Source: a virus (taxonomy: Duplodnaviria; Caudoviricetes). From it: a stretch of 64,000 nt of DNA. The DNA lies in IMG/VR virus record IMGVR_UViG_3300009185_000001, positions 138,881 to 202,880 of that record, one strand, 5' to 3'. How positions within the stretch are numbered: the stretch's first letter is position 1; the number at the start of each line of letters is the position of its first letter. A program made the position numbers and the translations under genes. The notes beneath the pieces are model-generated. The model ran no database searches, was not told the origin of the DNA, and saw nothing but the letters and a program-made list of their open reading frames with translations. This document shows positions 5,272 to 61,645 of the stretch, in pieces.

Positions 5272-6744
5272 TTAGAGATATCGCGCAGTCTGGTTAGAAG
5301 CAAAGCCTTCTCCGAGACCCTTGACGATGATTACATGGTAGTACAGAGAAGCACCAAAGATGTAATCTACAACTCCGTAGCGAGTCATAAGACCGACGCG
5401 AGGTGAGAAGTCATTTGGGCCGACTGTACGCTGAATCATGACAGGGATATACGGACAATATACGATACCTGTATCGTAGTATTCTGTGCCTTTATAACCA
5501 AGCAATGCATATTCCAATGCGGTTTGTCTTTGACCTGTTAGATACTGAGCATCTGTACGTGTGTCGCGGTAAACAGTAAATCTTCCACCCAATGTTCCAA
5601 CTTTGGCAATGCCTGTTGGTTGTGTGTTGATATTTCCGTTTACTGGCATCCACGTAAACTCAGGGAGCATTTCAAGAATCGCGCAAACGCGAGGTGTAGC
5701 AATAATAAAATTGGCTGAACCACGGCGGTTACGGATAGCAATGCGGTTAGCTTCGACGATGACCTTGGAGTAGAAATCACGATTTCTTTCTCCGAGCCAA
5801 CGTGCGTCAGCTGACTGAGCGTACCAGAATGTGTATCCATTTGGGTTACCAGCATTAAGAGCGATTTGAATCATTCTGATGACCATTTCACGGTCGATCT
5901 CAGCCTGAATTTCATATGACATAGCATTTGTTAATTCAGAGTCGATATCGAGTCCGTTCATGTTCTTCAAGTCTTGCTCAAGTTCAACAGACCAGCGAGC
6001 GGCGAGGCGGCGTGTGCCAGCTTCAACGGCTGTTTTGCTGAATTCAACAGTAACTTGAGGAATGTTTCCAGTAAGTTCGAACTGGCTAAGGATAGCAGCA
6101 ACACCTTGATCAGTAGAAGCAACGCTGAAATCAGCATTGCCTGTGAGTGAGGCGGCACTAGTACCTGTAAAGCGAGTATCGAGATACTGATAGCCAAGTT
6201 CATTCGGACCAGCAACACGGGGAACCGTGTAGTTGGTTGGGTCGTTTGAATCTTTAAATGAACCAGAAGTTGTTGATCCGGTTGCATATCCATCGATTCC
6301 ATTTGAACCTAAGCTAGCATTCTCATAGCGGTAACGAAGGGCAAATGCAAGTCCGACTGGACCACTCATAGGCTGAACACCGACGATCTCGTTAGTGATA
6401 AGCTCTGGGAATGTACGTCTGATCATCGGTATAAGAACCTTTGGTAAACGTGCATCACCATTAGCATAACCATCATTCGAGTTAACTGATCCCGGAGGAG
6501 CATAGATACCACCGATAGTACTGCCAGAGCCGAAGGCTCCACCATTACCAGCGAAGTTTCCACCCTCTTCCAAGCACCAACGCTCTTGGTTTTCCATCAG
6601 CATAGCTGTGGTAACGCGAGCATGCTCGTCTTCAATTGGGCGGACTTTATCACTTGTGTAATTAAGTACCGGGGCCCATTTTTCGAGGAGTTGATTGGCA
6701 CGGGATTTGTCGATGTAACCGGGTGCGGGTTTTACATTATTCAT
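5272..6744 (-). CDS. gp23: Major capsid protein, T4 gp23-like
   Basis: LLEKWAPVL, IVGVQPMSGPVGLAFALR, RWSVELEQDLKNMNGLD, YCPYIP...F.PRVGLMTRYG. Confidence 0.97.
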   Translation of the reverse strand: MNNVKPAPGYIDKSRANQLLEKWAPVLNYTSDKVRPIEDEHARVTTAMLMENQERWCLEEGGNFAGNGGAFGSGSTIGGIYAPPGSVNSNDGYANGDARLPKVLIPMIRRTFPELITNEIVGVQPMSGPVGLAFALRYRYENASLGSNGIDGYATGSTTSGSFKDSNDPTNYTVPRVAGPNELGYQYLDTRFTGTSAASLTGNADFSVASTDQGVAAILSQFELTGNIPQVTVEFSKTAVEAGTRRLAARWSVELEQDLKNMNGLDIDSELTNAMSYEIQAEIDREMVIRMIQIALNAGNPNGYTFWYAQSADARWLGERNRDFYSKVIVEANRIAIRNRRGSANFIIATPRVCAILEMLPEFTWMPVNGNINTQPTGIAKVGTLGGRFTVYRDTRTDAQYLTGQRQTALEYALLGYKGTEYYDTGIVYCPYIPVMIQRTVGPNDFSPRVGLMTRYGVVDYIFGASLYYHVIIVKGLGEGFASNQTARYL

Positions 6745-6810: not shown

Positions 6811-7698
6811 TTATCTTATTTCCTTTAAAGCTGTGAGATATTTGTTAACTGGTGTGTTTTCAACAGTTGTAGACTCAGAGATTACTTTTGAAGCAGGAAC
6901 TCTAGCATCTTTAGAAACCGCAGTTTTTTTGGCTTCTTCTACTAAAGTTTTTGACGTTTCGCTTTCTTCTCTTTCAAACATCTCAACAACATATTTAAAG
7001 TTCTCCTCAATGTATGAGGTAGATTTGTCATTCAACAGATTTGAAATATAACCTTTTTTAGAGGCTGACATTCCTTTTGTTTTTTGTTCTAAAATTAATG
7101 AAGATTTTACAGTTTCAAATTTTTCTTGAAGATCAATATTTTCTTTGAAAGATTCATTCAATTGATTTTCTAATTTAGTAATCTTTGCTCTTCCTTCAGA
7201 AACGATTCTTTTAACATCGCTATTCAATGATGAAGGATCAAAGGCAATGATGCTTTTGATTTGCTCTAATTGTTTGATTGCTGTTTTATTAGAAACTGCT
7301 TCTTCTAATTGTGATTGTGGAATTGCTTTTGAAAGGTAAGCATCCATGAAGTTGCTGATTTCGTTAACAACTTTTTTGCTAAATTTTTCAGCCTTTTCAT
7401 TTAAGGCTTTGCGATAAAACCCAACAAGCTGTTCGAGTTTAATTGTATGGTTTTCGTTAATAGCAGATACAACCTTTTCAAGTTTTGAGGAATGATCAGT
7501 ATCAATCGCTTCTAAAAGTTTTTCTAATTTTAAAGCATGTTCGTCGTCTTGTTTGCTGAGAGCCTTTTCAACTTGCAATTCAAGTTGATCTTCGACCTTT
7601 TCACTAACAGCTGATTCAAACGCTTCAGCAATTGCGGAAGCAGCTTCTTCATTGAGAACGTTTGTATCAATATTTGAAATGATTGATGAGATATCCAT
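6811..7698 (-). CDS. gp22: Prohead core scaffolding protein, gp22-like
   Basis: Acidic coiled-coil 295 aa directly upstream of gp23; ends PVNKYLTALK. Confidence 0.8.
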   Translation of the reverse strand: MDISSIISNIDTNVLNEEAASAIAEAFESAVSEKVEDQLELQVEKALSKQDDEHALKLEKLLEAIDTDHSSKLEKVVSAINENHTIKLEQLVGFYRKALNEKAEKFSKKVVNEISNFMDAYLSKAIPQSQLEEAVSNKTAIKQLEQIKSIIAFDPSSLNSDVKRIVSEGRAKITKLENQLNESFKENIDLQEKFETVKSSLILEQKTKGMSASKKGYISNLLNDKSTSYIEENFKYVVEMFEREESETSKTLVEEAKKTAVSKDARVPASKVISESTTVENTPVNKYLTALKEIR

Positions 7699-7719: not shown

Positions 7720-7995
7720 TTACTTCTTTCCTTTTTTATTATTTTTTTTCAACTGCTTAAAATCAGCACCTGTGATTTTATTTTTTGGTTTTGCAGCACT
7801 TGCAAGTTTTTTTTGAGCAGGAGATAATTTTTTCTCGGCAATTTTCTTGACGCGAGATTTTACTTTTTCAGTAACCACTTTATCTAAAGTTGTGTTAGCA
7901 TCAGAATAATTTTTTTCGCAGATTTGAGCTACCAATTTAGAAATTAAGTTTCGAATATTCATATTAATATTATTATTTATCCTAGTGCTATACAA
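7720..7995 (-). CDS. Small prohead core protein (gp67/gp68-like position)
   Basis: Between gp21 and gp22; helical N-terminus and basic tail. Confidence 0.45.
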   Translation of the reverse strand: MYSTRINNNINMNIRNLISKLVAQICEKNYSDANTTLDKVVTEKVKSRVKKIAEKKLSPAQKKLASAAKPKNKITGADFKQLKKNNKKGKK

Positions 7996-7996
7996 A

Positions 7997-9775
7997 TTAA
8001 AGTTTCTTTAATGAATTAATAAATTTAATTATTTCTTCAGTGAGATATTTATTGCCTTCTTTTGTGGGAATATTTGAAATGGCTTTTTCAAATCTGTCAT
8101 ATGCAGGAGCAAATTTACCATCTTCATTTAATATCCATTGTTTAGATTCTAGAATACCATTTACAAAAGCAGAAGGAACCGAAGGATCAGCAACAACGTC
8201 AACGGCAACAAGTCTAAAATCAGCAACACGATTAACACCGGATTTACTTTCTTCTAATCTGCCTAATGCACGACTAGAAACACCGAGCTTAACACCATCC
8301 ATGATCAATGAACGAACGATTTGTCCCATGGGAGTAGAAAGAACTTTTGATTTTCCTTCAAAAATATTGCCATTCTGTTTCAATTCTGTAACAACATGAC
8401 AAACTCTTTCAAGGTTTATTTCTGGAGAGTTACCAGTCCAAGAACACTTGCCATTGTCCATGCAATAAAAATTTTCATTTGGAACAGAAACACAATATAC
8501 TCTGTCATCAAAATCATTTACTTCTTCTATTTTTAAAAACCTATCATCCAAACAAACATATTCTGTTTTTGCTATATTTAATTGATATAAGGGAACTTTA
8601 TTTTCTGCTTTTATTATTCGATCTGCAAATTTATAATCTGCTTCGGTAATAATAGTTGTAATATTTCCACATCCGCCAGATTTAAGGAGAATTTCATTGA
8701 AATCTAACATTAATTGTTTTGATGTAGAAAAGATATTTCTGATTTCATATTCTCCAGCTTCTTGAATAACTGTAGAAAACCTACCATCACCTAAATTAAA
8801 CCAATATATCATTTCCTCTAAAAGAGGAGCAGAAATATTTTTAAATTGCTTTGGAATTTTTTTATTGTAACAATTAGTTCCAAAATTTTCTTTTAAAAAT
8901 TGAGAAAGTCTTAAATCTCTTAAAATAAATGTGGATGTTCCACTAGAAGATATATTTTCAGACCATTTCATTTCTTCTGGAAACTTGGAAAGAAGTTCTC
9001 TTATTTGAATTTTTATTTCTTCTTTTCTTTGTGTAATTCCAATCGTTGTTTCTCTGTGGGTTACGGTATAACCTTCTGCCAACCATATACCCAAAAATTG
9101 AACAAATGTTTTATAATCAATTTTAGAATCAATTTCTGGATTTATTAAATACTTTCCTTTTTTTAAAGTATTTTTAACTCCTTTTAAAATAAAAAAATCA
9201 GGAGTTTCAGCAAACCAGTTTCCTGTTTTTGGAATTCTGTGTTTATTGTATTTTGTTCTATTATTAAAAATTTCTTCGATTGTAACAAAAACAGGATTGT
9301 TATATCTATCAATTAAAAGAAGTCTGTGAGTAGGAGTAATAAGAGTGTTTATGTTTCTTCCATTTACTCTATACATTTTTCCTTTATATTCTTGATCTAT
9401 TTTTTTTGTTATTTGATTGAGTTCTATTTCTCTGGTTTTAGGATTTAAAGTATAAACCTTTTCAGTTTCAGATATTTCGGTTATATTCTTCCAACCATCT
9501 TCGCAAAGTATTGATGCTGATGATGTTATACAGGAAGGGTGATTCAATTCCCCGGTGGCTCTTTTTGTTACAATCATTTCGTCATTATAACGATTAACTT
9601 CTTTAACCATTTCTTCTAGTGGATAAACTCTTTTATTTTTATTGGCTTCATTAGCCATTAAAAATGGTCCTTGGATATGAAGGATTGAAGGAGTATTTCT
9701 ATTACGTTCCTCGATGAGGTACTGAACATCATAGGTTGGTTGTTCTACTAAAAGACTATAAGCATTTTTTGACAT
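7997..9775 (-). CDS. gp21: Prohead protease gp21 interrupted by an intein
   Basis: IQGPFLMANEANKNKRVYP, GELNHP...INLERVCH, LGVSSRALG, DVVADPS. Confidence 0.93.
   Translation of the reverse strand: MSKNAYSLLVEQPTYDVQYLIEERNRNTPSILHIQGPFLMANEANKNKRVYPLEEMVKEVNRYNDEMIVTKRATGELNHPSCITSSASILCEDGWKNITEISETEKVYTLNPKTREIELNQITKKIDQEYKGKMYRVNGRNINTLITPTHRLLLIDRYNNPVFVTIEEIFNNRTKYNKHRIPKTGNWFAETPDFFILKGVKNTLKKGKYLINPEIDSKIDYKTFVQFLGIWLAEGYTVTHRETTIGITQRKEEIKIQIRELLSKFPEEMKWSENISSSGTSTFILRDLRLSQFLKENFGTNCYNKKIPKQFKNISAPLLEEMIYWFNLGDGRFSTVIQEAGEYEIRNIFSTSKQLMLDFNEILLKSGGCGNITTIITEADYKFADRIIKAENKVPLYQLNIAKTEYVCLDDRFLKIEEVNDFDDRVYCVSVPNENFYCMDNGKCSWTGNSPEINLERVCHVVTELKQNGNIFEGKSKVLSTPMGQIVRSLIMDGVKLGVSSRALGRLEESKSGVNRVADFRLVAVDVVADPSVPSAFVNGILESKQWILNEDGKFAPAYDRFEKAISNIPTKEGNKYLTEEIIKFINSLKKL
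8429..9532 (-). mobile_element. Intein (368 aa) with LAGLIDADG homing endonuclease
   Basis: Starts C82 (CITSSASIL), ends ...SWTGN followed by Ser; LAGLIDADG-like FLGIWLAEG and FNLGDG; removal restores GELNHPS-SPEINL. Confidence 0.9.
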
Positions 9776-35626: not shown

Positions 35627-36373
35627 ATGGGTAAAGTAATAGAGTTTATAGCAAACACAAAAGAAATGTTGGAGGTTATTGAAAAACCATATCCAGCAAT
35701 AACAAAACTTCCTGATTGGATTAGTAATACTCCTTCGTATATCAATTGTAAAAAATCTGTGGATGAATTTGGTGATCCTACCAGCACCATTAAAAAATGT
35801 CTACCCGTAGTAGATGCTATGACTGCGGGATATCATATTCCACTTCATTGCGATGTTTGGGTAGAAAATGCAGGACCAAGTGATATTAATATAAAATGGT
35901 CTTGGGATACCCTACAAGTAATTGATATGCAGAAGCAAGAACAAATGCAAACATATCCCGTTCCAGAAGGATTTTATCCTACATCATTTAAATTTATAAA
36001 TCCTTGGATTGTAAAGACTCCTGCGGGGTGGTCTTGTTTGTTTACACATCCACTCCACTATGATGATCTTCCATATAAATGCCTTCCAGCAATTGTAGAT
36101 ACCGATAAGCATCCAATTCCTGTTAATTTTTTATTCTTTTTAAATAAAAATTTTTCCGGATTGATAGAAAAGGGAACACCGATGATACAAGTCATTCCAT
36201 TTAAACGAGAAGATTTTAAATCTCAATTTTCATTTGATACAGGAAGCTTTAAGCAAAAATGGGAAAAGGCTCATCAAGTATTTTTTGATAGATATAAAAG
36301 ATTTTTCAGATCTCCCAAGAAATATGAACAAGGGGATATTAAAAATTGTCCGTTTGCATTTTTACATAAATAA
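35627..36373 (+). CDS. Conserved phage hypothetical protein (possible dUTPase-like beta fold)
   Basis: TIKKCLPVVDAMTAGY, FINPW.VKTP.GWSCLF, AIVDTD, KGTPMIQVIPFKR; TTGACA promoter at 35595. Confidence 0.55.
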   Translation: MGKVIEFIANTKEMLEVIEKPYPAITKLPDWISNTPSYINCKKSVDEFGDPTSTIKKCLPVVDAMTAGYHIPLHCDVWVENAGPSDINIKWSWDTLQVIDMQKQEQMQTYPVPEGFYPTSFKFINPWIVKTPAGWSCLFTHPLHYDDLPYKCLPAIVDTDKHPIPVNFLFFLNKNFSGLIEKGTPMIQVIPFKREDFKSQFSFDTGSFKQKWEKAHQVFFDRYKRFFRSPKKYEQGDIKNCPFAFLHK

Positions 36374-37245: not shown

Positions 37246-37524
37246 ATGAAATTTGATTTACTTGTAGAAAGTTTGCTAAACGAAGCCGCTCGTTGTAAGG
37301 GTCCAACTAAAAAAACCCAATCTGACCGAAAGGGTAAGAAATACATGCAGTGTGTAAAAAATCCAAAAGGCAAGGGATATAAAAGAGTTCATTTTGGACA
37401 AGCAGGAGTAAAGGTAACAGGAAAGTCTGGAAACACAAAACGAAAAAAATCATTTCGTGCAAGACACAAATGCTCCACTGCAAAACCGGGCACGGCCAAA
37501 TATTTAAGTTGTAAAAATTGGTAG
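37246..37524 (+). CDS. Small basic Cys-containing protein with likely processed N-terminus
   Basis: TATAAATA at 37233-37240; MKFDLLVESLLNE|A leader; KRKKSFRARHKC...YLSCKNW. Confidence 0.7.
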   Translation: MKFDLLVESLLNEAARCKGPTKKTQSDRKGKKYMQCVKNPKGKGYKRVHFGQAGVKVTGKSGNTKRKKSFRARHKCSTAKPGTAKYLSCKNW

Positions 37525-41135: not shown

Positions 41136-41208
41136 TGCGGGTTACAGTTCTGGCGAACTGAGGGGTTTCATAAGCCTCTTTAGGTGGATTCGATTTCCAC
41201 ACCCGCAA
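41136..41208 (+). tRNA. tRNA-Met/Ile2 (CAU)
   Basis: TGCGGGT/ACCCGCA acceptor, loop TTCATAA, GTGGA-TTCGATT-TCCAC; no encoded CCA. Confidence 0.85.
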
Positions 41209-41216
41209 TTTTTAAT

Positions 41217-41349
41217 TCCTCATTAGACGAATTGGTAAAGTCACGGGACTGTGGGAGAAGCAGGTTAGCGTAATATGAGTTCGATTCTCATAACTCCAAG
41301 TCTAATCCCGCGCAGCAATGCATTCTTCGTTCAAGTCGAAGATGAGGAG
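41217..41349 (+). tRNA. tRNA-Ser(GCU)-like with ~50-nt insertion in the anticodon
   Basis: TCCTCAT/ATGAGGA acceptor, G73, D arm GAC/GTC, CGGGA/TCCCG anticodon stem, GCA-GCAA-TGC variable arm, CTTCG-TTCAAGT-CGAAG. Confidence 0.75.
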
Positions 41350-41513
41350 CATTTTAGAATAGATAAAAAGGTTCTCGATGATCCAGATAAAAAAAATCGA
41401 AAATACTTCTTGACCTTTTCAGAAAAAATTGTTAGAGTATTTGAAGATTAGTAAAGGTTATCTGAACCTTGTAAAAAAATCAGAAAAGATTTTTGATAGA
41501 ATAGAATTTATAT

Positions 41514-41856
41514 GGTCGAGTGGTGGAATGGCAGACACAACGGACTTAGAGAAATTTGAGCTTTGATTGGGAAACCTTTCAAATGTAACTTGTCAAATTC
41601 GGTGAAGGGTTTAAACTCCTAATACCGAGCCAAGCATCGAAAGATGAAGGTGTAGAGACTTGACGGCAAGAACCTAAAGCGAAAGCAATGGTTAAGGTAA
41701 AGTCCAGACTACAAACAGATTGAGAAAAGTAAATCCCGAAAGGATTGAACAGAGCGGTAAATACGCTGACTGACGAATCTGGTAACGAAAGTTATAGTAG
41801 TAAGAAAATCCGTTGCCAGTAATGGCGTGAGGATTCGAGTTCCTCCTCGACTACCA
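41514..41856 (+). tRNA. tRNA-Leu(UAA) split by a group I intron
   Basis: Exons 41514-41547 (…ACGGACTT) and 41805-41856 (AAAATCCGT…CTCGACTACCA) join to give a type II cloverleaf with loop CUUAAAA. Confidence 0.92.
41548..41804 (+). ncRNA. Group I intron (trnL-UAA / IC3-type position), 257 nt, no ORF
   Basis: P AAATTCGGTGAA, Q AATACCGAGCCAAG, R GGTGTAGAGACT, S AAGGTAAAGTCC; follows U34; ends in G; ACTAC/GTAGT P9.0. Confidence 0.92.
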
Positions 41857-41864
41857 ATTTAAAA

Positions 41865-41958
41865 GCAAGGTTAGTGTAACTGGAAGCACCGACAGACTTA
41901 TAATCTGTGTATCCTAGATTTGGATCGAGCGTGGGTTCAATTCCCACACCTTGCACCA
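41865..41958 (+). tRNA. tRNA-Ile(UAU)-like with long variable arm
   Basis: GCAAGGT/ACCTTGC, ACAGA-CTTATAA-TCTGT, 22-nt extra arm (ATCC/GGAT), GTGGG-TTCAATT-CCCAC, ACCA. Confidence 0.75.
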
Positions 41959-41981
41959 TTTTGTAAGTAGTTGATTTAGAT

Positions 41982-42053
41982 AGGGGTGAAGCATATTGGT
42001 CATGCGCTCTGCTCATAACGGAAGGAAAGTGGGTTCGATCCCCATCGCCCCTA
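41982..42053 (+). tRNA. tRNA-Met(CAU), elongator-like
   Basis: AGGGGTG/CGCCCCT, loop CTCATAA, GTGGG-TTCGATC-CCCAT. Confidence 0.85.
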
Positions 42054-42065
42054 CATTTTTCATAA

Positions 42066-43702: not shown

Positions 43703-43730
43703 AGAAGTATAAGTAATTTACAATTCAAAT

Positions 43731-44429
43731 ATGAAAACCAAAGATCAAATATTATTAGAAGATTTATATATATCTATATATAACGAAAACAATCAACAGG
43801 ATGCATTAGCAAAACTTTCTCCGCACTTACAACAAATTGCTAATGATCTTTTATCATATCTTTCAAAGGGAGCAAGAAAGGCTAGTTTTTATTACCGATC
43901 TAAAATAAGCGGAAGAGAAGGAAAATATTACGTGGATCTTGGAGTTGATTATGGAACTGCAAAAAGAGAAAGCCATGAAACCATAAGAAACTATATCGAC
44001 ATGCTAAAGGAAAGCGATCCGGAAAATCCGGATATAGCAGTTGGAGAAAAAATTTTAAATCCATCAGAATCCACAAGAAAACCTTCGGTAGATAGAAAAA
44101 TAAATCTTGGACATGGAATATCAATTCAAGATACTGTAAAAGAACCAGAAGTATATCGCCTATATATCTATGCATATGCTCAAAATGACATAGAAAAGGA
44201 TGAAGAGGGAAAGGCCATAAAAAACTTTGAAGGCAATTATGTTCGATCTTCTGCGGGAAAGGTAGATGAAGTTATTCCTGCATCAAAACCAAAATCTTTC
44301 AGCAGTGCAGAACAACTTAATTATAAATTAAAAACAAAACTTTCTAGATTTCGAAGATTCATTCTCGATCCGGAAAACATTTCAGGAATTACATACAAAG
44401 GCGGAATAATAGAATTCCAAAATCAATAA
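43731..44429 (+). CDS. MKTKD-tag family protein; paralog of 61106-61645
   Basis: MKTKDQILLEDLY leader; TATAAGTA at 43708. Confidence 0.7.
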   Translation: MKTKDQILLEDLYISIYNENNQQDALAKLSPHLQQIANDLLSYLSKGARKASFYYRSKISGREGKYYVDLGVDYGTAKRESHETIRNYIDMLKESDPENPDIAVGEKILNPSESTRKPSVDRKINLGHGISIQDTVKEPEVYRLYIYAYAQNDIEKDEEGKAIKNFEGNYVRSSAGKVDEVIPASKPKSFSSAEQLNYKLKTKLSRFRRFILDPENISGITYKGGIIEFQNQ

Positions 44430-44495
44430 TAAAAAGAAATTTTAAATAAAGTTTTTTTTTATATTTTGGCATACCGTGATATAAATATTATTATT

Positions 44496-44840
44496 ATGAA
44501 AACAAAAGATACAATACTATTAGAGAAAGCCTATAAAAAAGTTTTGAAGGAAGCCGAAGTAGGATCTTATGGAGAACGTATGAATGCACAGGGAACACTT
44601 TCTAATGCTAATCCTGCGGAAGTTTATGCAAAATTTGAAGAACTTACAGATAACTTTTACGCCAGTTTAAAAAAGGTAAAAACCCTTTTAGATAGTGAGG
44701 TTTGGAAAAAATTAGCGAACAATGGAGGGTTTAATGATATTTTGGATCATGAAGAGGGTGACGATTATGGTTCAGGTTCACATCCATTCGATTTTGACGA
44801 CTGGGTAAGCCAAGTTGACGTTAAAGGTTATTATTTCTAA
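44496..44840 (+). CDS. MKTKD-tag family protein (start 44496)
   Basis: TATAAATA at 44480-44487; MKTKDTILLEKAYKKVLKE. Confidence 0.7.
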   Translation: MKTKDTILLEKAYKKVLKEAEVGSYGERMNAQGTLSNANPAEVYAKFEELTDNFYASLKKVKTLLDSEVWKKLANNGGFNDILDHEEGDDYGSGSHPFDFDDWVSQVDVKGYYF

Positions 44841-44863
44841 GTTGTAAATATTTTATTTTAAAT

Positions 44864-44904
44864 TAATACCACACCTTGTAAAAATACAACAGGGTGTGGT
44901 ATTA
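44864..44904. terminator. Hairpin between convergent genes
   Basis: TAATACCACACC/GGTGTGGTATTA stem. Confidence 0.5.
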
Positions 44905-44910
44905 TAGCAT

Positions 44911-45663
44911 TTAAATAAAAGTAAAATATTCTTTAAATTTAATACTACTAATTCCCTCTTCGTATTTGTGTAGAGGTTCTTTCATAAGTTCTTTATCCTC
45001 TTGTTCCTCTTTTAATTTATAAGTCAAATTCAAAAGTTCTTTGCTACTTTTAATCCTTCCAAATTCTTGCGGAGATATTATTTCAATGTTTGGATTTAAT
45101 TGCTTTAAGGTTTTAATTATATTAACATACTTCTGACTATTACTCGGCGGGGGCGTACCCCTTCCAATCCATTCTTGATTGGTTGTCTTGGGAACACTGG
45201 CAAAGACAACCTCGGCAGTATTAAAATCCATAATACCTTCATCATAATGAAGAGATTCATCATATCCATTGAAGTCTTTATCAATGCCATGCAATCTTTC
45301 GTCCTTCAATCGCGGACTTGTTGCAATTCGAGAACCATCTGGAAGTTGCTTGGTATATGCATCAAAGTCATATAATTCTTTTATTTTACCAAATCCAACT
45401 ATTATTATACTATTGTTTTCGTCTCTATATACCGAATTGCTTCTTATGGTTGAAACACAGATTTCAGCCTTTTTTCCGATTTGTTTCAAATTAACCAAAT
45501 CATTTGCATTCTCTTCTGTCCAATAAAAGGAATGGATGAATATTCCATGATACAGACGATTATATTCCTCTGCCTTTTTTTGGCCTACTTTCATCATGTT
45601 TGAATTCGGTTGAATGTTTTCTTTATAAAGATTTTCTAAAAATACTTGATCTTTTCCGCGCAT
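44911..45663 (-). CDS. MKTKD-tag family protein, possible ADP-ribosyltransferase fold
   Basis: MRGKDQVFLENLY leader; TATAAATA at 45670-45677; FIH...CVST...YDE order. Confidence 0.55.
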   Translation of the reverse strand: MRGKDQVFLENLYKENIQPNSNMMKVGQKKAEEYNRLYHGIFIHSFYWTEENANDLVNLKQIGKKAEICVSTIRSNSVYRDENNSIIIVGFGKIKELYDFDAYTKQLPDGSRIATSPRLKDERLHGIDKDFNGYDESLHYDEGIMDFNTAEVVFASVPKTTNQEWIGRGTPPPSNSQKYVNIIKTLKQLNPNIEIISPQEFGRIKSSKELLNLTYKLKEEQEDKELMKEPLHKYEEGISSIKFKEYFTFI

Positions 45664-45687
45664 ATGATATATTTATAAAAAAAAGTT

Positions 45688-46563
45688 ATGGAACAATTAG
45701 ATTTTTTTGTAAAGTTGGAAGAGAAGAAACCAATTTGTCGTGTTTGTGGTAATGATTTTGAAAAAACTAGAAGATGGCAAAAATATTGTTCTAAAAGTTG
45801 TAAACACAGAAAGTTGAGAATTAAAAAAAAACTATCTAATTTTGTAAAATTAGAAGAAAATAAACCAATTTGTTCTATTTGTGGGAATAGTTTTGAAAAA
45901 ACTAAACATAATAAAATATACTGTTCTAAAAGTTGTAAACATAGACAGGGGTGGATTAAAAACAAAAAAACAAAATCTATATCTAATAAAAAATATCGTT
46001 TAATTAATAAGAAAAAAATAAAAGAAAGAAGAATAGAAACATCTAAAATATATAGAGAGAAAAATAAAGAAGAAATAAAAAAAAAGCAATTAGAATTTTA
46101 TAAAAAAAATAAAAAACGTCTGTGTGAGATTCAAAAAGAATATCGTAAAAATAACAAAAATTCTATATCAGAAACTAAAAAATTATATAGAAAAAATAAT
46201 AGAACAAAAATAAATCAAAATTTAAAGGAAAAATATTGTACTGATTTTTCCTTTAAACTTTCACAAATTTTAAGAAAAAGATTAAGAAACGGATTACGAG
46301 CACAAAAAACAACAAAAACAAATAAAACAGTTGATTTAATAGGATGCTCCTTTGATTTTGTTAAAATTCATTTAGAAAAACAATTCAAAGAAGGAATGAC
46401 ATGGGAGAATCATGGTTTATATGGATGGCACATTGATCATATTATACCTTGTGCATCTTTTGATCTAACAGACCCTGAACAACAAAAGAAATGCTTTCAC
46501 TACACAAACCTTCAACCCCTATGGGCAGCAGAGAATATGTCCAAAGGAGCAAAGATATTATAA
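45688..46563 (+). CDS. Free-standing HNH endonuclease with N-terminal Cys repeats
   Basis: Two C..C...KYCSKSCK units; MTWENHG..GWHIDHIIPCASF...FHYTNLQPLWA.EN.SKG. Confidence 0.8.
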   Translation: MEQLDFFVKLEEKKPICRVCGNDFEKTRRWQKYCSKSCKHRKLRIKKKLSNFVKLEENKPICSICGNSFEKTKHNKIYCSKSCKHRQGWIKNKKTKSISNKKYRLINKKKIKERRIETSKIYREKNKEEIKKKQLEFYKKNKKRLCEIQKEYRKNNKNSISETKKLYRKNNRTKINQNLKEKYCTDFSFKLSQILRKRLRNGLRAQKTTKTNKTVDLIGCSFDFVKIHLEKQFKEGMTWENHGLYGWHIDHIIPCASFDLTDPEQQKKCFHYTNLQPLWAAENMSKGAKIL

Positions 46564-46938
46564 ACCAAATGATCGGTAGTTTGTTTCTATGAAATTAATA
46601 AAATTTTGAATATTTGTATTATCAAAATCTTTTATATTCTCGACATTTTGTAGCATACTCATCAAATTATTAAGAGTCTGCTTTAATTCATTATTATTAT
46701 TAAAACTTTCAAATCTTCCACTATTAGCCATGTCCTGTAAAATTCTAAAAAAGTGATTAAATAAATCCCCTTCTCTAGAACTCCCTAAGTTTTTTGATTT
46801 GATTTCATTTAATATGGGTTCTAAAACATCCATAAGTTCCATAAACAATCTTTGAAGATCTTGAATACCACTTCCATAAAAATTTTCAAAAACTTTTTCG
46901 TAGGCTTGTTCTAATAATATAGTATCGTTTGTTTTCAT
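46558..46938 (-). CDS. MKTKD-tag family protein
   Basis: MKTNDTILLEQAYEKV; TATAAATA at 46947-46954. Confidence 0.7.
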   Translation of the reverse strand: MKTNDTILLEQAYEKVFENFYGSGIQDLQRLFMELMDVLEPILNEIKSKNLGSSREGDLFNHFFRILQDMANSGRFESFNNNNELKQTLNNLMSMLQNVENIKDFDNTNIQNFINFIETNYRSFGL

Positions 46939-46987
46939 ATTTTATATATTTATATTAAAAATAACCAAATTCCTCTTATTCTTTATA

Positions 46988-47542
46988 TTAATCTAAAGGA
47001 GCATTCGGTTTATCTTTAAAATAAGAAGCCATGCCCTTACTTCTATTTGCCAACATATCAATGTATCTTTCAACATTGTATATTGTTTCCTCATCCTCAA
47101 TCGGCCCTGTAATAATATCATTAGGACGAATATCCAAACCACCCCTATAAGAACCCTCTTCCCCTTCTGAATTATAAATTTTATACTTAATTCCGGTTCT
47201 GGTATCAACATCATTAGTAGCAGGTGCTATTTCCTTCTGACCCATATCCCTTTGCTCATCCTCTACAAATATTTTACCCGCAGATAAGTCTGCAATTTTA
47301 TATAACCTTGGATTATATCCATCTTGTTTAGAATGAATATACCAAGAACCTTCTTTTAAATTTTCATTCTCAATAGCATCATAAAAATTTTGCTTCGGTA
47401 AGGAAGATACATTATCTCCCAATGCTTTTTTCAAAGGAGAACTAAAATCTGCACCCTTAAAGAATTCTTCAGAAGTTGAATTATCTTTCCCAAGAACCTT
47501 TTCATAGGCTTGCTCTAATAGTATTGTATCTTTTGTTCTCAT
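46988..47542 (-). CDS. MKTKD-tag family protein
   Basis: MRTKDTILLEQAYEKV; TATAAATA at 47551-47558. Confidence 0.7.
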   Translation of the reverse strand: MRTKDTILLEQAYEKVLGKDNSTSEEFFKGADFSSPLKKALGDNVSSLPKQNFYDAIENENLKEGSWYIHSKQDGYNPRLYKIADLSAGKIFVEDEQRDMGQKEIAPATNDVDTRTGIKYKIYNSEGEEGSYRGGLDIRPNDIITGPIEDEETIYNVERYIDMLANRSKGMASYFKDKPNAPLD

Positions 47543-47619
47543 ATTTTATATATTTATATTAAAAATAACCAAATTCCTCTTATTCTTCATATAAGATATA
47601 AGAAGTATTGGGGAAAGCT

Positions 47620-47745
47620 TTTGAAGATTAAGAAAATTTTTGAAGACTTTTTTATATTAAGAAAACTTTTGAAGATTACGGAGAATTTTGAAGATTAAGA
47701 AAACTTTTGAAGATTAGGGAGAATTTTGAAGACTTTTTTATATTA
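47620..47745. repeat. Degenerate ~19-bp tandem repeats (TTTGAAGAYT core)
   Basis: About 6 copies of ttt(t)gaaga(tt/ct) in non-coding DNA. Confidence 0.6.
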
Positions 47746-48126
47746 CACTCGGTTTTTTTTAAAAATTTTGCAAAAAAAATTTTACCAGAAATTTTTAAAA
47801 ATGTCAAGAATAATCTTCAAAATCTTTAACTCTTTAATATCCAAAATTTTACACAATATTCCCAATACTCCCAAGCCTTCCCAAGTATCCCCCAAGGGGT
47901 ATAGGGGGTATAAGATTCTTAATATTATATCAAATAGGGTATAGTGTTTTTATATCAACCTCTGTTTTAATAGAACATGGTGTAGCATTACAGCAGGATT
48001 TAAAATGACATTAGGTGTTGATGCAGGTTTCTAGCATTTGTAATATTAAGCATATTAGTATAAATTTCCTCTAGGGGGAAAATTACTAATTGATATATAA
48101 TATTAAGAATACTTCCCAATGCTTTT

Positions 48127-48420
48127 TAATATTACCGGAAATTTCTCCTAGGGGGAAAATTGAATATTACTGGAAATTTCTCCTAGGGGATTTTTAATAT
48201 TACTGGAAATAATATTATGAAGAATTTTTAATATTACTGGGAATATTATTATGGGAAATTTTTAATATTACTGGGAATAATATTACGAAGAATTTTTAAT
48301 ATTACTGGAAATTTCTCCTAGGGGGATTTTTAATATTACTGGAAATTTCTTCTAGGGAATTATTGATAATATTAGGAAGGGTATTGGGGGAGGGATGATT
48401 GAGTATTACTGGGAATTTTT
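48127..48420. repeat. ~34-bp tandem repeats, TAATATTACTGG(G)AA core; candidate iterons
   Basis: Unit starts at 48127, 48162, 48195, 48229, 48263, 48297, 48331, 48367, 48401. Confidence 0.75.
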
Positions 48421-48757
48421 GAGGATTTTTGATATTATTTTTATTGGGAAAATTTTTTTTGGTGTGAGTATGATTGTGCATATATTTATGCGTATATGAT
48501 GGGGGAGGGGAGGGGTAGGCAGATTTTGCCTATCAAAAGTTTTTGGAGGTGTCGAAAAATAAAAATTTGACACCTCCAAAACTTTGAAATTTTTGATGCG
48601 GAAATTTTTGCCTATCAAAAGTTTTTGGAGGTGTCGAAAAATAAAAATTTGACACCTCCAAAACTTTCCATGCTGTGGTTGCTCTCCCAAACTTTTTTTC
48701 ATGTTTCCAAAAATAGTTCTTGCTTTTACCAGAAATAAAAACTATTCTATTTGCCTT

Positions 48758-50725
48758 ATGAAATTGCAAACCGCCACAACAACAATCGAACAAATCGGAA
48801 ACATATCACAAGAGGCTCAATTCACGATGAAGACATCGAGAAAAGCCTTTCAGATTCTTTCTGACTTGTATAGTGATAAACCCCTCGCAATCGTTCGTGA
48901 ACTTGGAGCAAATGCCAAGGACGCAATGGTTGCTGCTGGTAAAGGAGATCAACCATTCCATGTTAAACTTCCCAATGCTCTGGAGCCTTGGATTGTTATT
49001 GAAGATATGGGAACTGGTATTTCCCATGAAGACATATACAATGTCTATACGAAATACTTTGAATCTACCAAGTCAGAATCAAATGATTTTGTGGGATGCC
49101 TCGGCTTGGGCAGCAAAAGCCCTTTCTGCTACTCGGATAACTTTTTGATCACTTCTACCCACCAAGGAGTCAAACGCATCTACAATGCCTTTTTCAGCCA
49201 AACTGGAACTCCTGCCATTTCTTTGATGTCCACAGAGAATACAGATCAAGGCAATGGATTGGCAATTCAAATTCCTGTTAAGCTCGCAGATGTTGTCACC
49301 TTCTGCAATGCGGTTGCAAAAGCCTTTCGCTTCTTCAAGATCAAGCCTTCTATTAGTGGTGGGACTATTGATTGGAAGATCAACAAGATTATGTTTGAGG
49401 GTGAAGGATGGGAAGCTCACGAAGGTTTCACCTATGGGGAATGCTATGCAATCATGGGTGGCGTTACCTATCCTGTGGATCGTTACAAACTTTCACATGA
49501 GGCTCAAAACTTTTGTGCCAAGGGTGGAGTTGTCATGTATTTTGAGATCGGAGAATTGGATGTAACTCCTTCCCGCGAATCTCTTTCTTATGACGATGCA
49601 ACAATCAAATCACTTGAAAGCAAATTTGCCTTTATCAAGAAAGATTTTGAGGAAAAGCTGACCAATACTATCGAAGGCAAATCAAACCTTCTGGATGCAC
49701 TTCGTTCACATTGGAATCTTTCTCACACCTTTGCTCATCTTACTACCAATTTTGACAATGTGAAATGGAGGGGCATTGAGCTTTCAAATCCTGCTCAACT
49801 CATTTCAAAAATATCAAAGGGTGATGTTATGACTCATTCCTTTACAAAGTATTCTCGTTCCAAGTATCGGGAATCGGTTTTTGTTTCGATTGATACAAAA
49901 GCCAAGTGGTATGTCGATGACCTTGCAAAAGGAACAACAGCAAGGGTTAAACAACACCTTCGCAGCAACAACGACGATATGCTTTGCGTATTCAGCAAAG
50001 AAACATTCGATACTCTTGTCAATCATAAGGATGTAAACTATCGCTTCGATGCTTCGATGTTCATTCCAACTTCTACCCTGCCCAAGGTTGTCAATACTCC
50101 CAAGGGTGGAACGAGGACTCCCAAGGTTGGTTTCAATGTTTATACCTTTGGAACATCTTGGCACTCCCGATGGGATTCTGAAACCTTCAACCCTGCCAAT
50201 GCTCCCAAATACTATATCGTAAAAGAGGGAAGCACATGGGATATTTCAATCAAAACAAACTTTGGAAAAATCAGCGGAAAGTCTGACTTGCGTTCTTTGC
50301 TTGGATATTTGAATCTCAAGGAATCTGATATTGTCATGGTATCCCCTCAAAACGAAAAGCATCTTGCCCCATTCTCAAAGAATATCAAAGATGCTGCCAA
50401 TGATATTAAAATTGACTTGGATGAAGATACGATTGCAACCGCACAGCATTATGCTAATGATACTTATCAAGATATTAAAAAGCATCCCACATTCAAGAAA
50501 CTGAAACAAGATTCTGATTTTGTGGTGTTTGTGAACAAAGTCTGTGCGGCTCATAATAGTGTGAAGAAATATAAAAACCTTTTGGGAATGTTTACTATGT
50601 CAAAGGGAAAGCCAGCAGTCCTTGATTCCCAATGCCCTATCACAAATCTTGTGTCAAAGCGTATGGGAAGATATGGATGGGAAGCAGAAGACATTCTAAC
50701 CATCCTCGAAAATTTCCAAAAATAA
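48758..50725 (+). CDS. rIIA: rIIA-like protein (HSP90/GHKL ATPase domain); true start likely 48758
   Basis: AFQILSDLYSDKPLAIVRELGANAKDA, DMGTGIS, YFESTK, GCLGLGSKSPFCYSD. Confidence 0.9.
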   Translation: MKLQTATTTIEQIGNISQEAQFTMKTSRKAFQILSDLYSDKPLAIVRELGANAKDAMVAAGKGDQPFHVKLPNALEPWIVIEDMGTGISHEDIYNVYTKYFESTKSESNDFVGCLGLGSKSPFCYSDNFLITSTHQGVKRIYNAFFSQTGTPAISLMSTENTDQGNGLAIQIPVKLADVVTFCNAVAKAFRFFKIKPSISGGTIDWKINKIMFEGEGWEAHEGFTYGECYAIMGGVTYPVDRYKLSHEAQNFCAKGGVVMYFEIGELDVTPSRESLSYDDATIKSLESKFAFIKKDFEEKLTNTIEGKSNLLDALRSHWNLSHTFAHLTTNFDNVKWRGIELSNPAQLISKISKGDVMTHSFTKYSRSKYRESVFVSIDTKAKWYVDDLAKGTTARVKQHLRSNNDDMLCVFSKETFDTLVNHKDVNYRFDASMFIPTSTLPKVVNTPKGGTRTPKVGFNVYTFGTSWHSRWDSETFNPANAPKYYIVKEGSTWDISIKTNFGKISGKSDLRSLLGYLNLKESDIVMVSPQNEKHLAPFSKNIKDAANDIKIDLDEDTIATAQHYANDTYQDIKKHPTFKKLKQDSDFVVFVNKVCAAHNSVKKYKNLLGMFTMSKGKPAVLDSQCPITNLVSKRMGRYGWEAEDILTILENFQK

Positions 50726-50767
50726 ATCTTGCAATTACCAGAAATAATCTCTACTATTATCAGCCTT

Positions 50768-51814
50768 ATGAACACTACAAACAATGCAGTCACAATCACA
50801 GGAACAGGAAAAATCGCAGCGGTCGTCAATGGCAGACCATACTCGATTGCTTCTGATCATCCAAACTACAATCAAATCATTGGGGCTATCAAATCCCAAG
50901 ACTGGACTTCGTTCGTAACTCTTGCCGATGTTACAAGCCAAGTGAAACAATACACGACAACCGATGGAGTTGAGATCGTGGATGGAGCAGTCATCTATAA
51001 GGGTGAAGCAATTCACAATACTCTCACCAATCGAATCGTGAAGTTCATGGGTGAAGGTCTGCCCTTCCAACCCCTCGTAAGGTTCTTGGAAAATCTGATG
51101 AACAATCCAAGCAAGCGAGCAGTGGATGAACTCTACACATTCTTGGAAGTCGGGGAACTTCCAATCACAGAGGATGGATGCTTTCTGGCATACAAGAATG
51201 TTCGTGCGGATTACATGGACATTCATTCGGGAACATTCAGCAACAAGATTGGTGATGTTTGCGAAATGCCTCGCAATCGGGTTTGCGATGATAGCGAACG
51301 CACTTGCTCTGCGGGTCTTCACTTCTGTTCAATCGCATACCTTCCCCACTTCTCCGATAGTGATGGAGGACATACAATGATTGTGAAGATCAATCCTGCG
51401 GATGTTGTTTCAATTCCAAAGGATTACAACAATACTAAAGGTCGGGCTTGCAAGTATGAAGTCATTGCAGAATACACCGAGGATTGGCGTTCCAAGCTCA
51501 ACAAAGGTGAAAGCGGATGGGATGCAGGTCTTTACACTTCTGATGGTGAAGACTATGAGCTTGATGAACTCGATGAGCTTGACGAAAATGAAAACGAAAA
51601 CGATTGCACCTACTCTCATCCAGATTGCGATGATTACCATTGCTTCTGCGAGGACAAGGATTATGGTTACAAACCCAATGGTCACAAGTTCCACAATGTT
51701 CGTGGAGCCGATGGAAAGTTTGTAAAGAAAGAAGAAGAAGGTTTAGGTAAGGTGGTTGGTGGATTGGTGAAGGCATTCAGCGATGCTCTCAACAAAGCAG
51801 GATATATTCACTAA
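50768..51814 (+). CDS. rIIB: rIIB-like protein; true start likely 50768
   Basis: FLENLMNNPSKRAVDELYTFL, LPITEDGCFLAYK, MPRNRV.DD, CSAGLHFCS, VKINPADVVSIPKDY. Confidence 0.92.
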   Translation: MNTTNNAVTITGTGKIAAVVNGRPYSIASDHPNYNQIIGAIKSQDWTSFVTLADVTSQVKQYTTTDGVEIVDGAVIYKGEAIHNTLTNRIVKFMGEGLPFQPLVRFLENLMNNPSKRAVDELYTFLEVGELPITEDGCFLAYKNVRADYMDIHSGTFSNKIGDVCEMPRNRVCDDSERTCSAGLHFCSIAYLPHFSDSDGGHTMIVKINPADVVSIPKDYNNTKGRACKYEVIAEYTEDWRSKLNKGESGWDAGLYTSDGEDYELDELDELDENENENDCTYSHPDCDDYHCFCEDKDYGYKPNGHKFHNVRGADGKFVKKEEEGLGKVVGGLVKAFSDALNKAGYIH

Positions 51815-61105: not shown

Positions 61106-61645
61106 ATGAACATCAAAATCAGCGCAATCGACAGCCTCCGCGAGGCCACTAAAAGGGGATGCAAGTTTATGACATTCCTCTACACCAGCAAGGGAACAGG
61201 AGAAACCTCCAAGTATCAGATCAACTTCGGTATCAGCAACAAGTCCGCTTGCGAACATGACCGAGAAGCACTTCTTGCCTATGTCCCTCAATCAGAGCTT
61301 GAGGAAACCGCTAAAGCGGAATTGCTCAAGTCCCTCACCGAGACAATCGAAGAGGGTGTCAGCAAGTCCTACACGCAAGCCGATACATATGACTACATCG
61401 GCAAGGGCATCCGTCAGCATAAAGAGACTGGGGAAATCTACATTGACGGCTTCATTCAGTCCAAGGAACAGGTTGAGCCTCCGACCAATCCAAAGAAACC
61501 AGTCAACAGCCGACCCCTCACGCTTGCCAAGAATGCAATCAAAGAGACTTGCAACTTCAAGCGTAACAAGTTCGGCAGCTTCATTCTCAACCCCTCCAAT
61601 ATCGGCGGCATCGTTGTCTGTGGGGATGTCGTAGAGATTCACTAA
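61106..61645 (+). CDS. Hypothetical protein; untagged paralog of 43731-44429
   Basis: Shared F.Y.SK..G...KY....G and FIL.P.NI.GI blocks. Confidence 0.7.
   Translation: MNIKISAIDSLREATKRGCKFMTFLYTSKGTGETSKYQINFGISNKSACEHDREALLAYVPQSELEETAKAELLKSLTETIEEGVSKSYTQADTYDYIGKGIRQHKETGEIYIDGFIQSKEQVEPPTNPKKPVNSRPLTLAKNAIKETCNFKRNKFGSFILNPSNIGGIVVCGDVVEIH

Follow-up and report, generated by a model that had tools for sequence, protein, structure and literature searches.

We describe an N-terminal tag of the form M(K/R)xKD(Q/T)ILLExxY that opens five otherwise unrelated open reading frames (ORFs) in a 64-kb stretch of phage DNA, and we believe that it is probably a capsid-targeting propeptide of the kind used by bacteriophage T4. 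The stretch (hereafter the window) makes up the final 64 kb of an IMG/VR virus record that is complete at 202,880 bp; positions are those of the window except where "genome" precedes them. The tag is real, portable and selected at the protein level. The phage encodes T4-type head machinery, and a motif akin to the tag is present on its own core proteins. We infer the remaining steps, namely docking and cleavage of the tag, packaging and ejection of the tagged proteins (the cargo), and any role that these may have against host defences. The genome has terminal repeats and a GC content of 32%, and its source runs are labeled freshwater or lake water. As judged by sequence comparison, the phage is a deep-branching T4-like virus that is distant from every cultured phage.

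A portable tag on unrelated proteins

The initial annotation had quoted the N-termini of five window proteins, all of which proved exact, and the same tag form starts two further ORFs elsewhere in the genome:

43731..44429, plus strand: tagged ORF, 232 aa (MKTKDQILLEDLY...), body without a known family or fold
44496..44840, plus strand: tagged ORF, 114 aa (MKTKDTILLEKAY...), acidic orphan, further L-x-E at residues 17-19
44911..45663, minus strand: tagged ORF, 250 aa (MRGKDQVFLENLY...), weak ADP-ribosyltransferase-like lead
46558..46938, minus strand: tagged ORF, 126 aa (MKTNDTILLEQAY...), acidic orphan
46988..47542, minus strand: tagged ORF, 184 aa (MRTKDTILLEQAY...), acidic orphan
genome 1618, plus strand: tagged ORF outside the window, 125 aa
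genome 5150, minus strand: tagged ORF outside the window, 444 aa

In its fuller form the tag reads M-K/R-x-K-D-Q/T-I-L-L-E, often followed by x-A/L-Y-x-x-I/V. When all six frames of the 202,880-bp genome were scanned with the pattern M[KR]..D..[LFIV]LE, seven matches were obtained, every one at the start of an ORF of real length (0-21 open codons upstream), and no match fell inside an ORF. A hidden Markov model (HMM) of the tag, the search across the genome that the initial annotation had proposed as a check, scored the seven tagged ORFs at 21-36 bits, with the next best sequence at 9.3. Weak variants at genome 3775, 15102, 18955 and 21145 reached 2.5-8.2 bits; the last two of these variants head a MoxR-type ATPase and a phrog_1314 protein and score only 7-8 bits. 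Leu8 and Glu10 are present together in six of the seven tags, the tag at 45663 having Phe at position 8, and about half of the tags contain a second L/I-x-E near residue 19. The tag thus provides a core of about ten residues that ends in (L/I)-x-E with determinants at positions 8 and 10, and it sits at residue 1 of proteins that are otherwise unrelated. The bodies of the five window proteins are indeed unrelated, as had been claimed: the best pairwise BLASTP E value among them is 0.02, and they form five separate clusters at 1e-5.

To follow the tag beyond this genome we scanned IMG/VR with a degenerate DNA pattern that fixed D5, I7, L8, L9, E10 and Y13. The scan returned at least 115 loci and at least 218 tagged ORFs of 54-774 aa, at least 182 of them distinct, whose bodies fall into at least 93 clusters (BLASTP 1e-5). 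Among the matches listed, nearly all tags stand at ORF starts. Genomes carry roughly 4 to 11 tagged genes each; in two complete relatives, about 9 and about 4 of them are scattered along the genome. Positions that the pattern left free are nonetheless conserved, with Gln/Thr at 6, Ala/Leu at 12 and Ile/Val at 16. All six Leu codons are used at Leu8 and Leu9, Phe is nearly absent though the pattern allowed it, and third codon positions are far less conserved than first and second positions. Codons 2-4 are rich in AAA/ACA/AAC. Among 180 tagged genes of relatives, the upstream 40 nt hold no conserved motif (relative entropy ≤0.2). This synonymous freedom, coupled with the lack of any conserved upstream base, indicates selection on the peptide rather than on DNA or RNA.

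The family of the 232-aa protein offers a view of the tag as a detachable part. It has 36 homologues, most of them tagged and some with a shifted L-Q-E variant, and three homologues (P0030, P0032 and P0033) begin exactly past the tag region. The window itself encodes an untagged paralogue:

61106..61645, plus strand: untagged paralogue of the 232-aa protein, 179 aa, in an early-gene cassette region (22% identity, E 2e-7)

The presence or absence of the tag within one family is suggestive, though no more than that, of natural portability. In an AF2 model of the 232-aa protein, residues 1-19 have pLDDT <40 with a helix at 4-13, and the body is predicted at ~80. In the model the tag is thus a detached leader, a free helix of low confidence on a well-folded body.

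A T4-type head and a T4-like leader

A capsid-targeting signal needs a head that can read it. The following head genes lie near the start of the window:

5272..6744, minus strand: gp23 major capsid protein, with an N-terminal propeptide
6811..7698, minus strand: gp22-like scaffolding protein with many (L/I)-x-E sites, the presumed docking platform
7723..7962, minus strand: small core protein, placed like gp68 between gp21 and gp22
7997..9775, minus strand: gp21-type prohead protease (Peptidase_S77), the presumed tag-removing enzyme, with an intein of ~350 aa inside

This genome therefore encodes both a gp21-class protease and a gp22-type scaffolding core. Peptidase_S77 is encoded by all five large tag-bearing contigs examined, and a gp22-type core and gp23 are also present in those five relatives. 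The gp23 protein of our phage shares no more than 35% identity with the capsid proteins of cyanophages; its propeptide (...NQLLEKW...) resembles the tag and was considered as a tag mimic, but the tag HMM missed it and the candidate was dropped. The ~350-aa insert in the protease matches Intein_splicing (E 9e-9; 0.1 bit below the Pfam cut-off) and, weakly, LAGLIDADG_3. The proteases of the five relatives are uninterrupted, at 222-233 aa (open frames 223-273 aa). Since the intein splits the protease, head maturation in this phage would depend on protein splicing.

In T4 the internal proteins IPII, IPIII and IPI carry a capsid targeting sequence (CTS) that is removed by gp21 (Mullaney and Black 1996, as reviewed in PMC9026906 and PMC3012670). 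In IPIII, residues 1-10 are enough for packaging, residues 4 and 7 being the main determinants of targeting and residues 8 and 10 those of processing (PMC9026906). We fetched the T4 genes and found that ipII and ipIII start with MKTYQEFIAE, and that ipI starts with MKTFKEF... and has I-T-E at residues 17-19. Like the CTS of IPII and IPIII, the tag is a ten-residue core at the extreme N-terminus of unrelated proteins that is hydrophobic at 7-8 and has Glu at 10, giving an L/I-x-E site; several copies of the tag also share the M-K-T start, and its residue 8 is typically Leu. As with T4 ipII and ipIII, a block of upstream DNA plus tag is duplicated, here at 46938 and 47542. The tagged genes also adjoin a tRNA cluster (41136-42054 versus 43731-47542), much as T4 ipIII/ipII and ipI flank the T4 tRNA cluster, a parallel that may be coincidence.

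The two systems differ in several respects. The tag consensus is K-D-Q-I-L-L-E where T4 has Y-Q-E-F-I-A-E, the tag remains conserved for 6-10 residues past the proposed cut and often has the second L/I-x-E near residue 19, and its role, unlike that of the T4 CTS, is proposed from sequence alone. Whereas T4 has three internal proteins plus Alt, this lineage has its 93 or more body clusters, and many of the cargos are acidic rather than basic like the T4 internal proteins.

A second comparison concerns the core itself. T4 gp21, gp22, gp24, gp67 and gp68 have leaders of 6-13 residues ending in (L/I)-x-E, that of gp21 being MNEPQLLIE. In our phage the gp21 N-terminus, MSKNAYSLLVEQPTY, resembles the tag, and the proteases of the five relatives start with MSNVYNLLVETPNY or close variants. 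The gp68-like core protein carries ...ICEKNY or ...LVEQNY, and its N-terminus in our phage, ending ...AQICEKNY, fits [LIV][LIVC]E..Y. Of 238 crude genes of this genome, 8 have this motif within their first 22 residues, where 0.83 would be expected. The gp21 and gp68-like protein of this phage thus parallel the T4 core propeptides in carrying a tag-like motif; the T4 proteins, unlike the tagged cargo, are essential structural or enzymatic core parts and are not variable. That proteins bound to enter the prohead carry a tag-like signal is the strongest internal argument for head targeting.

Two other systems resemble parts of this one. T4 Alt is a packaged and injected ADP-ribosyltransferase whose N-terminal propeptide is cut at ITE-6 (PMC5694885). 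Enzyme-sized cargo with a short L/I-x-E leader is found here as well; the 250-aa cargo has its best fold matches among ADP-ribosyltransferases, and a relative has a tagged ART-PolyVal protein, though sequence similarity of the 250-aa cargo to Alt is not detectable and the fold evidence is weak. Giant phages of the phiKZ/SPN3US type process ejection proteins by cutting propeptides at (S/A/G)-x-E (PMC5694885). Their paralogous head proteins have identical N-terminal leaders, which a T4-related prohead protease cuts off after Glu, much as we propose for the tag; their propeptides differ in having a small residue rather than Leu/Ile at P3, are often long, and belong to a different phage lineage. 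In a limited set of literature searched in full text, we found the T4 CTS papers, but neither this tag nor any large set of tagged proteins in uncultured T4-like phages was described.

We propose that the tag would act as a short, free amphipathic helix. During prohead assembly this helix may dock the newly made late protein on the scaffolding core (gp22, the gp68-like protein and gp21). The gp21-type serine protease would then cut after Glu10 of L-L-E and, in about half of the tags, could make a second cut after the L/I-x-E near residue 19. Retained in the head, the mature cargo would exit together with the DNA when the next cell is infected. A complex prediction for the gp22 scaffold and tag residues 1-36 gave a score of 0.00, which speaks neither for nor against binding.

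Capsid targeting weighed against other explanations

The initial annotation had read the five N-termini as a capsid-targeting address label. That reading fits everything in it that could be tested, namely the T4-type head module, the match to the T4 CTS, the tag-like core proteins and the 93 or more body clusters.

Several observations weigh against it. The stretch over which the tag resembles the T4 CTS is too short for homology to be inferred. Conservation extends past the proposed cut (x-A/L-Y-x-x-I/V), which a ten-residue T4 CTS does not need, so the helix could serve another interaction or be cut elsewhere. The invariance of D5, I7, L8, L9, E10 and Y13 in relatives is partly a matter of ascertainment, and a TATAARTA box lies within 45 nt of only ~14% of the relatives' tagged genes. 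As for the enzymatic cargo discussed below, its ADP-ribosyltransferase signal is weak (Foldseek E >0.1, Z <8), and several homologues have another residue in place of the putative catalytic His39.

The most serious competitor, which we nevertheless regard as unlikely, is a shared docking or regulatory helix unrelated to the capsid (one that binds a common chaperone, host factor or membrane, or serves as a degron or oligomerisation handle) that is perhaps not removed at all. Such a helix would account for conservation reaching about residue 17-20, beyond the proposed cut, and for a tagged set of 54-774 aa with ATPases and enzymes among its members that are not necessarily virion proteins. It would leave as a coincidence that tag and T4 CTS agree in position, in length and in the residue-8/10 pair (PMC9026906), and it offers no account of why the tag-like motif is on the prohead protease and the small core protein, both of them prohead-bound, or why a gp21-type protease is found in all tag-bearing genomes examined.

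A second alternative starts from the DNA upstream of the tagged genes, where the following elements were located:

43708..43715, plus strand: TATAAGTA box, T4-late-promoter-like, 15 nt before the ATG at 43731
44480..44487, plus strand: TATAAATA box, 8 nt before the ATG at 44496
45670..45677, minus strand: TATAAATA box, 6 nt before the ATG at 45663
46939..46983, minus strand: 45-nt block upstream of 46938, including TATAAATA at 46947-46954
47543..47587, minus strand: second copy of the 45-nt block, upstream of 47542, with TATAAATA at 47551-47558

A TATAA(A/G)TA sequence had been reported upstream of all five genes and is present at each, as TATAAATA at 8, 6, 8 and 8 nt and as TATAAGTA at 15 nt before the ATG. 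Boxes 6-15 nt upstream of the five window genes, together with a homologue of the late sigma factor gp55 at genome 106696-106911 (43% identity, E 5e-10), would be consistent with late expression. Three lake RNA libraries yielded contigs that cover the tagged genes, with no silent control stretch beside them, and by which starts, strand, true transcription and timing are not provable; one of these contigs begins at 43722, 7 nt past the TATAAGTA box. The near-identity of the DNA upstream of 46938 and 47542 was also borne out: over the 45 nt before each ATG the two copies show 100% identity, and they differ little in the tag codons. The idea that promoter and tag travel as one DNA module holds for this recently duplicated pair and fails as a general rule.

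Could the whole pattern be a DNA-level recombination cassette, made of a promoter and a 5' coding stub by which genes are exchanged (as in the PeSL or regulatory-cassette shuffling of T4-type phages), with the peptide as its by-product? The 45 identical nucleotides at 46938 and 47542 show a higher identity than the tag codons, the upstream regions of T4 ipII and ipIII are likewise similar to each other, and contigs of related strains skip 43704-44862 and 45583-46542, which suggests that whole cassettes come and go. Set against this are the 180 tagged genes whose upstream 40 nt have no conserved positions, the codons that vary synonymously as the amino acids are kept, and the tag on operon-internal genes such as that at genome 1618, which lies inside an operon and has no box. 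We consider this explanation improbable.

Least probable of all, and in our view barely credible, is that the A-rich first codons enhance translation initiation on leaderless or very short-leader mRNAs: the boxes do end 6-8 nt before the ATG (giving leaders of ~1-3 nt) with no Shine-Dalgarno visible, and codons 2-4 are AAA/ACA/AAC-rich, but Asp5, Gln/Thr6, Ile7, Leu8, Leu9, Glu10 and Tyr13 are conserved under free synonymous change, and the same motif recurs in gp21 and the gp68-like protein at a greater distance from the initiation codon.

Leader length is of interest in its own right. T4 late promoters follow a spacing rule for transcript starts, and if the TATAAATA boxes are T4-type late promoters, this rule would give the ~1-3 nt and mRNAs that are nearly leaderless. 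The same TATAAATA-to-ATG spacing was seen at several other genes of the genome.

Capsid targeting remains the explanation that we favor, and the cargo is discussed on that basis.

Cargo, neighboring features and implications

Searches with Pfam and PHROGs returned nothing meaningful for the five window cargos. The anti-defence candidates of the initial annotation would thus be four orphans that lack a recognisable family or fold and a fifth protein with a weak ADP-ribosyltransferase-like signal. A phage database held no match for the region at the nucleotide level or for the 184-aa cargo at the protein level, Atlas feature searches with the 184-aa and 444-aa tagged proteins gave no usable match, and a fold search of the PDB with the 232-aa cargo found no match at E ≤0.001, the sole Atlas shape match of that protein being an unnamed viral cluster. 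Of the relatives' tagged proteins, 76 representatives were searched against Pfam, which identified GNAT, PolyA_pol plus HD, ART-PolyVal, GP88 and a few DUFs; the remainder matched no Pfam family.

The 250-aa cargo gives one weak lead, a possible ADP-ribosyltransferase-type split beta-sandwich fold. Its AF2 model has a pLDDT of 84.6, and two structure comparisons rank ADP-ribosyltransferases first. VIA-align matched the model to CteC (Z 6.3), Tpt1 (Z 4.9) and DarT (Z 5.2 and 4.9). Foldseek listed many PARP, DarT and CteC entries, every one with E >0.1, and Atlas feature matches to DarT and OspC reached 0.86, where the threshold for a lead is 0.9. Residues ~22-248 form a domain that recurs inside multidomain proteins of 300-1200 aa. 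When its homologues were compared for a catalytic H-Y-E or R-S-E triad, they shared the conserved blocks Y-H-G-x-F-x-H, S-T-x-R-S and Y-Y-D-E-G, and R74, D141 and E142 are invariant, which His39 is not. Pfam gave no match to the 250-aa cargo, and a profile search of the domain against PDB sequences gave nothing significant. Pfam also assigned no families to the large homologues, so the label "polyvalent proteins" was not confirmed for them.

Additional leaders may exist in this genome. A 92-aa ORF at 37246-37524 (plus strand) has a leader-like start, MKFDLLVESLLNEA, with TATAAATA 5 nt upstream, and a 248-aa ORF at 35627-36370 (plus strand), with a weak DUF6065 match, has ...EVIEKPY in its first 22 residues; both may be other head-targeted proteins with divergent leaders. 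The ORF at genome 1346-1618 (plus strand) starts with MKTFNETFE... and that at genome 2625-3110 (minus strand) with MKFKEFFYLE.... These two starts are nearer to the T4 IPI and IPIII leaders than to this genome's main tag, and a second leader class may therefore exist.

The surroundings of the tagged genes contain two further features:

44868..44900: GC-rich, terminator-like hairpin between the convergent genes at 44496 (plus) and 45663 (minus), read from sequence only
48701-51814: rIIA plus rIIB-like ORF

In one related-strain contig, which comes from an RNA library, only 13 other letters separate 43703 from 44863. The two plus-strand tagged genes are thus gained or lost together, in a unit whose limits are the upstream stop codon and the hairpin. 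The junction of the second related-strain contig runs from 45582 to 46543. Between the tagged genes, a 291-aa ORF at 45688-46563 (plus strand) carries at its N-terminus a CxxC...CxxC zinc finger in two copies (DNA repeats D7 and D9) and has a C-terminus that is HNH-like by eye, Pfam having found the zinc finger only. Because the second contig skips 45583-46542, this ORF looks like a mobile endonuclease insertion. The 1.1-kb gap from the last tagged gene to rIIA is dense in 19-nt and 34-nt tandem repeats at 47600-48450, and these are followed at 48524-48667 by two perfect 62-nt copies, each with a 41-nt palindrome.

The principle of such targeting is already known from T4. What is new is that the consensus differs from that of T4 and is longer, and that so many proteins are tagged in an uncultured lineage. 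A broader statement, on which we are evenly divided, is that a whole lineage of uncultured freshwater T4-like phages may load dozens of unrelated protein families into the head by means of one address helix of 16-20 residues, with ADP-ribosyltransferase-like, GNAT and nucleotidyltransferase enzymes among the cargos; the MoxR-ATPase set of this genome has weak variant leaders only.

Injected proteins act before phage gene expression and are therefore prime counter-defence candidates, T4 IPI* and Alt being the classic cases, and they are almost impossible to recognise by sequence. If our reading is correct, the tag would be a sequence-only marker with which the injected-protein repertoire of a widespread lake-phage lineage could be listed straight from metagenomes. 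The part conserved past the cut would then be a lineage-specific recognition code common to the phage's protease and core proteins, and the tag would provide a second, divergent targeting peptide for protein-packaging tools like those built on T4. At least 93 unexplored protein families would become candidate early-acting effectors.

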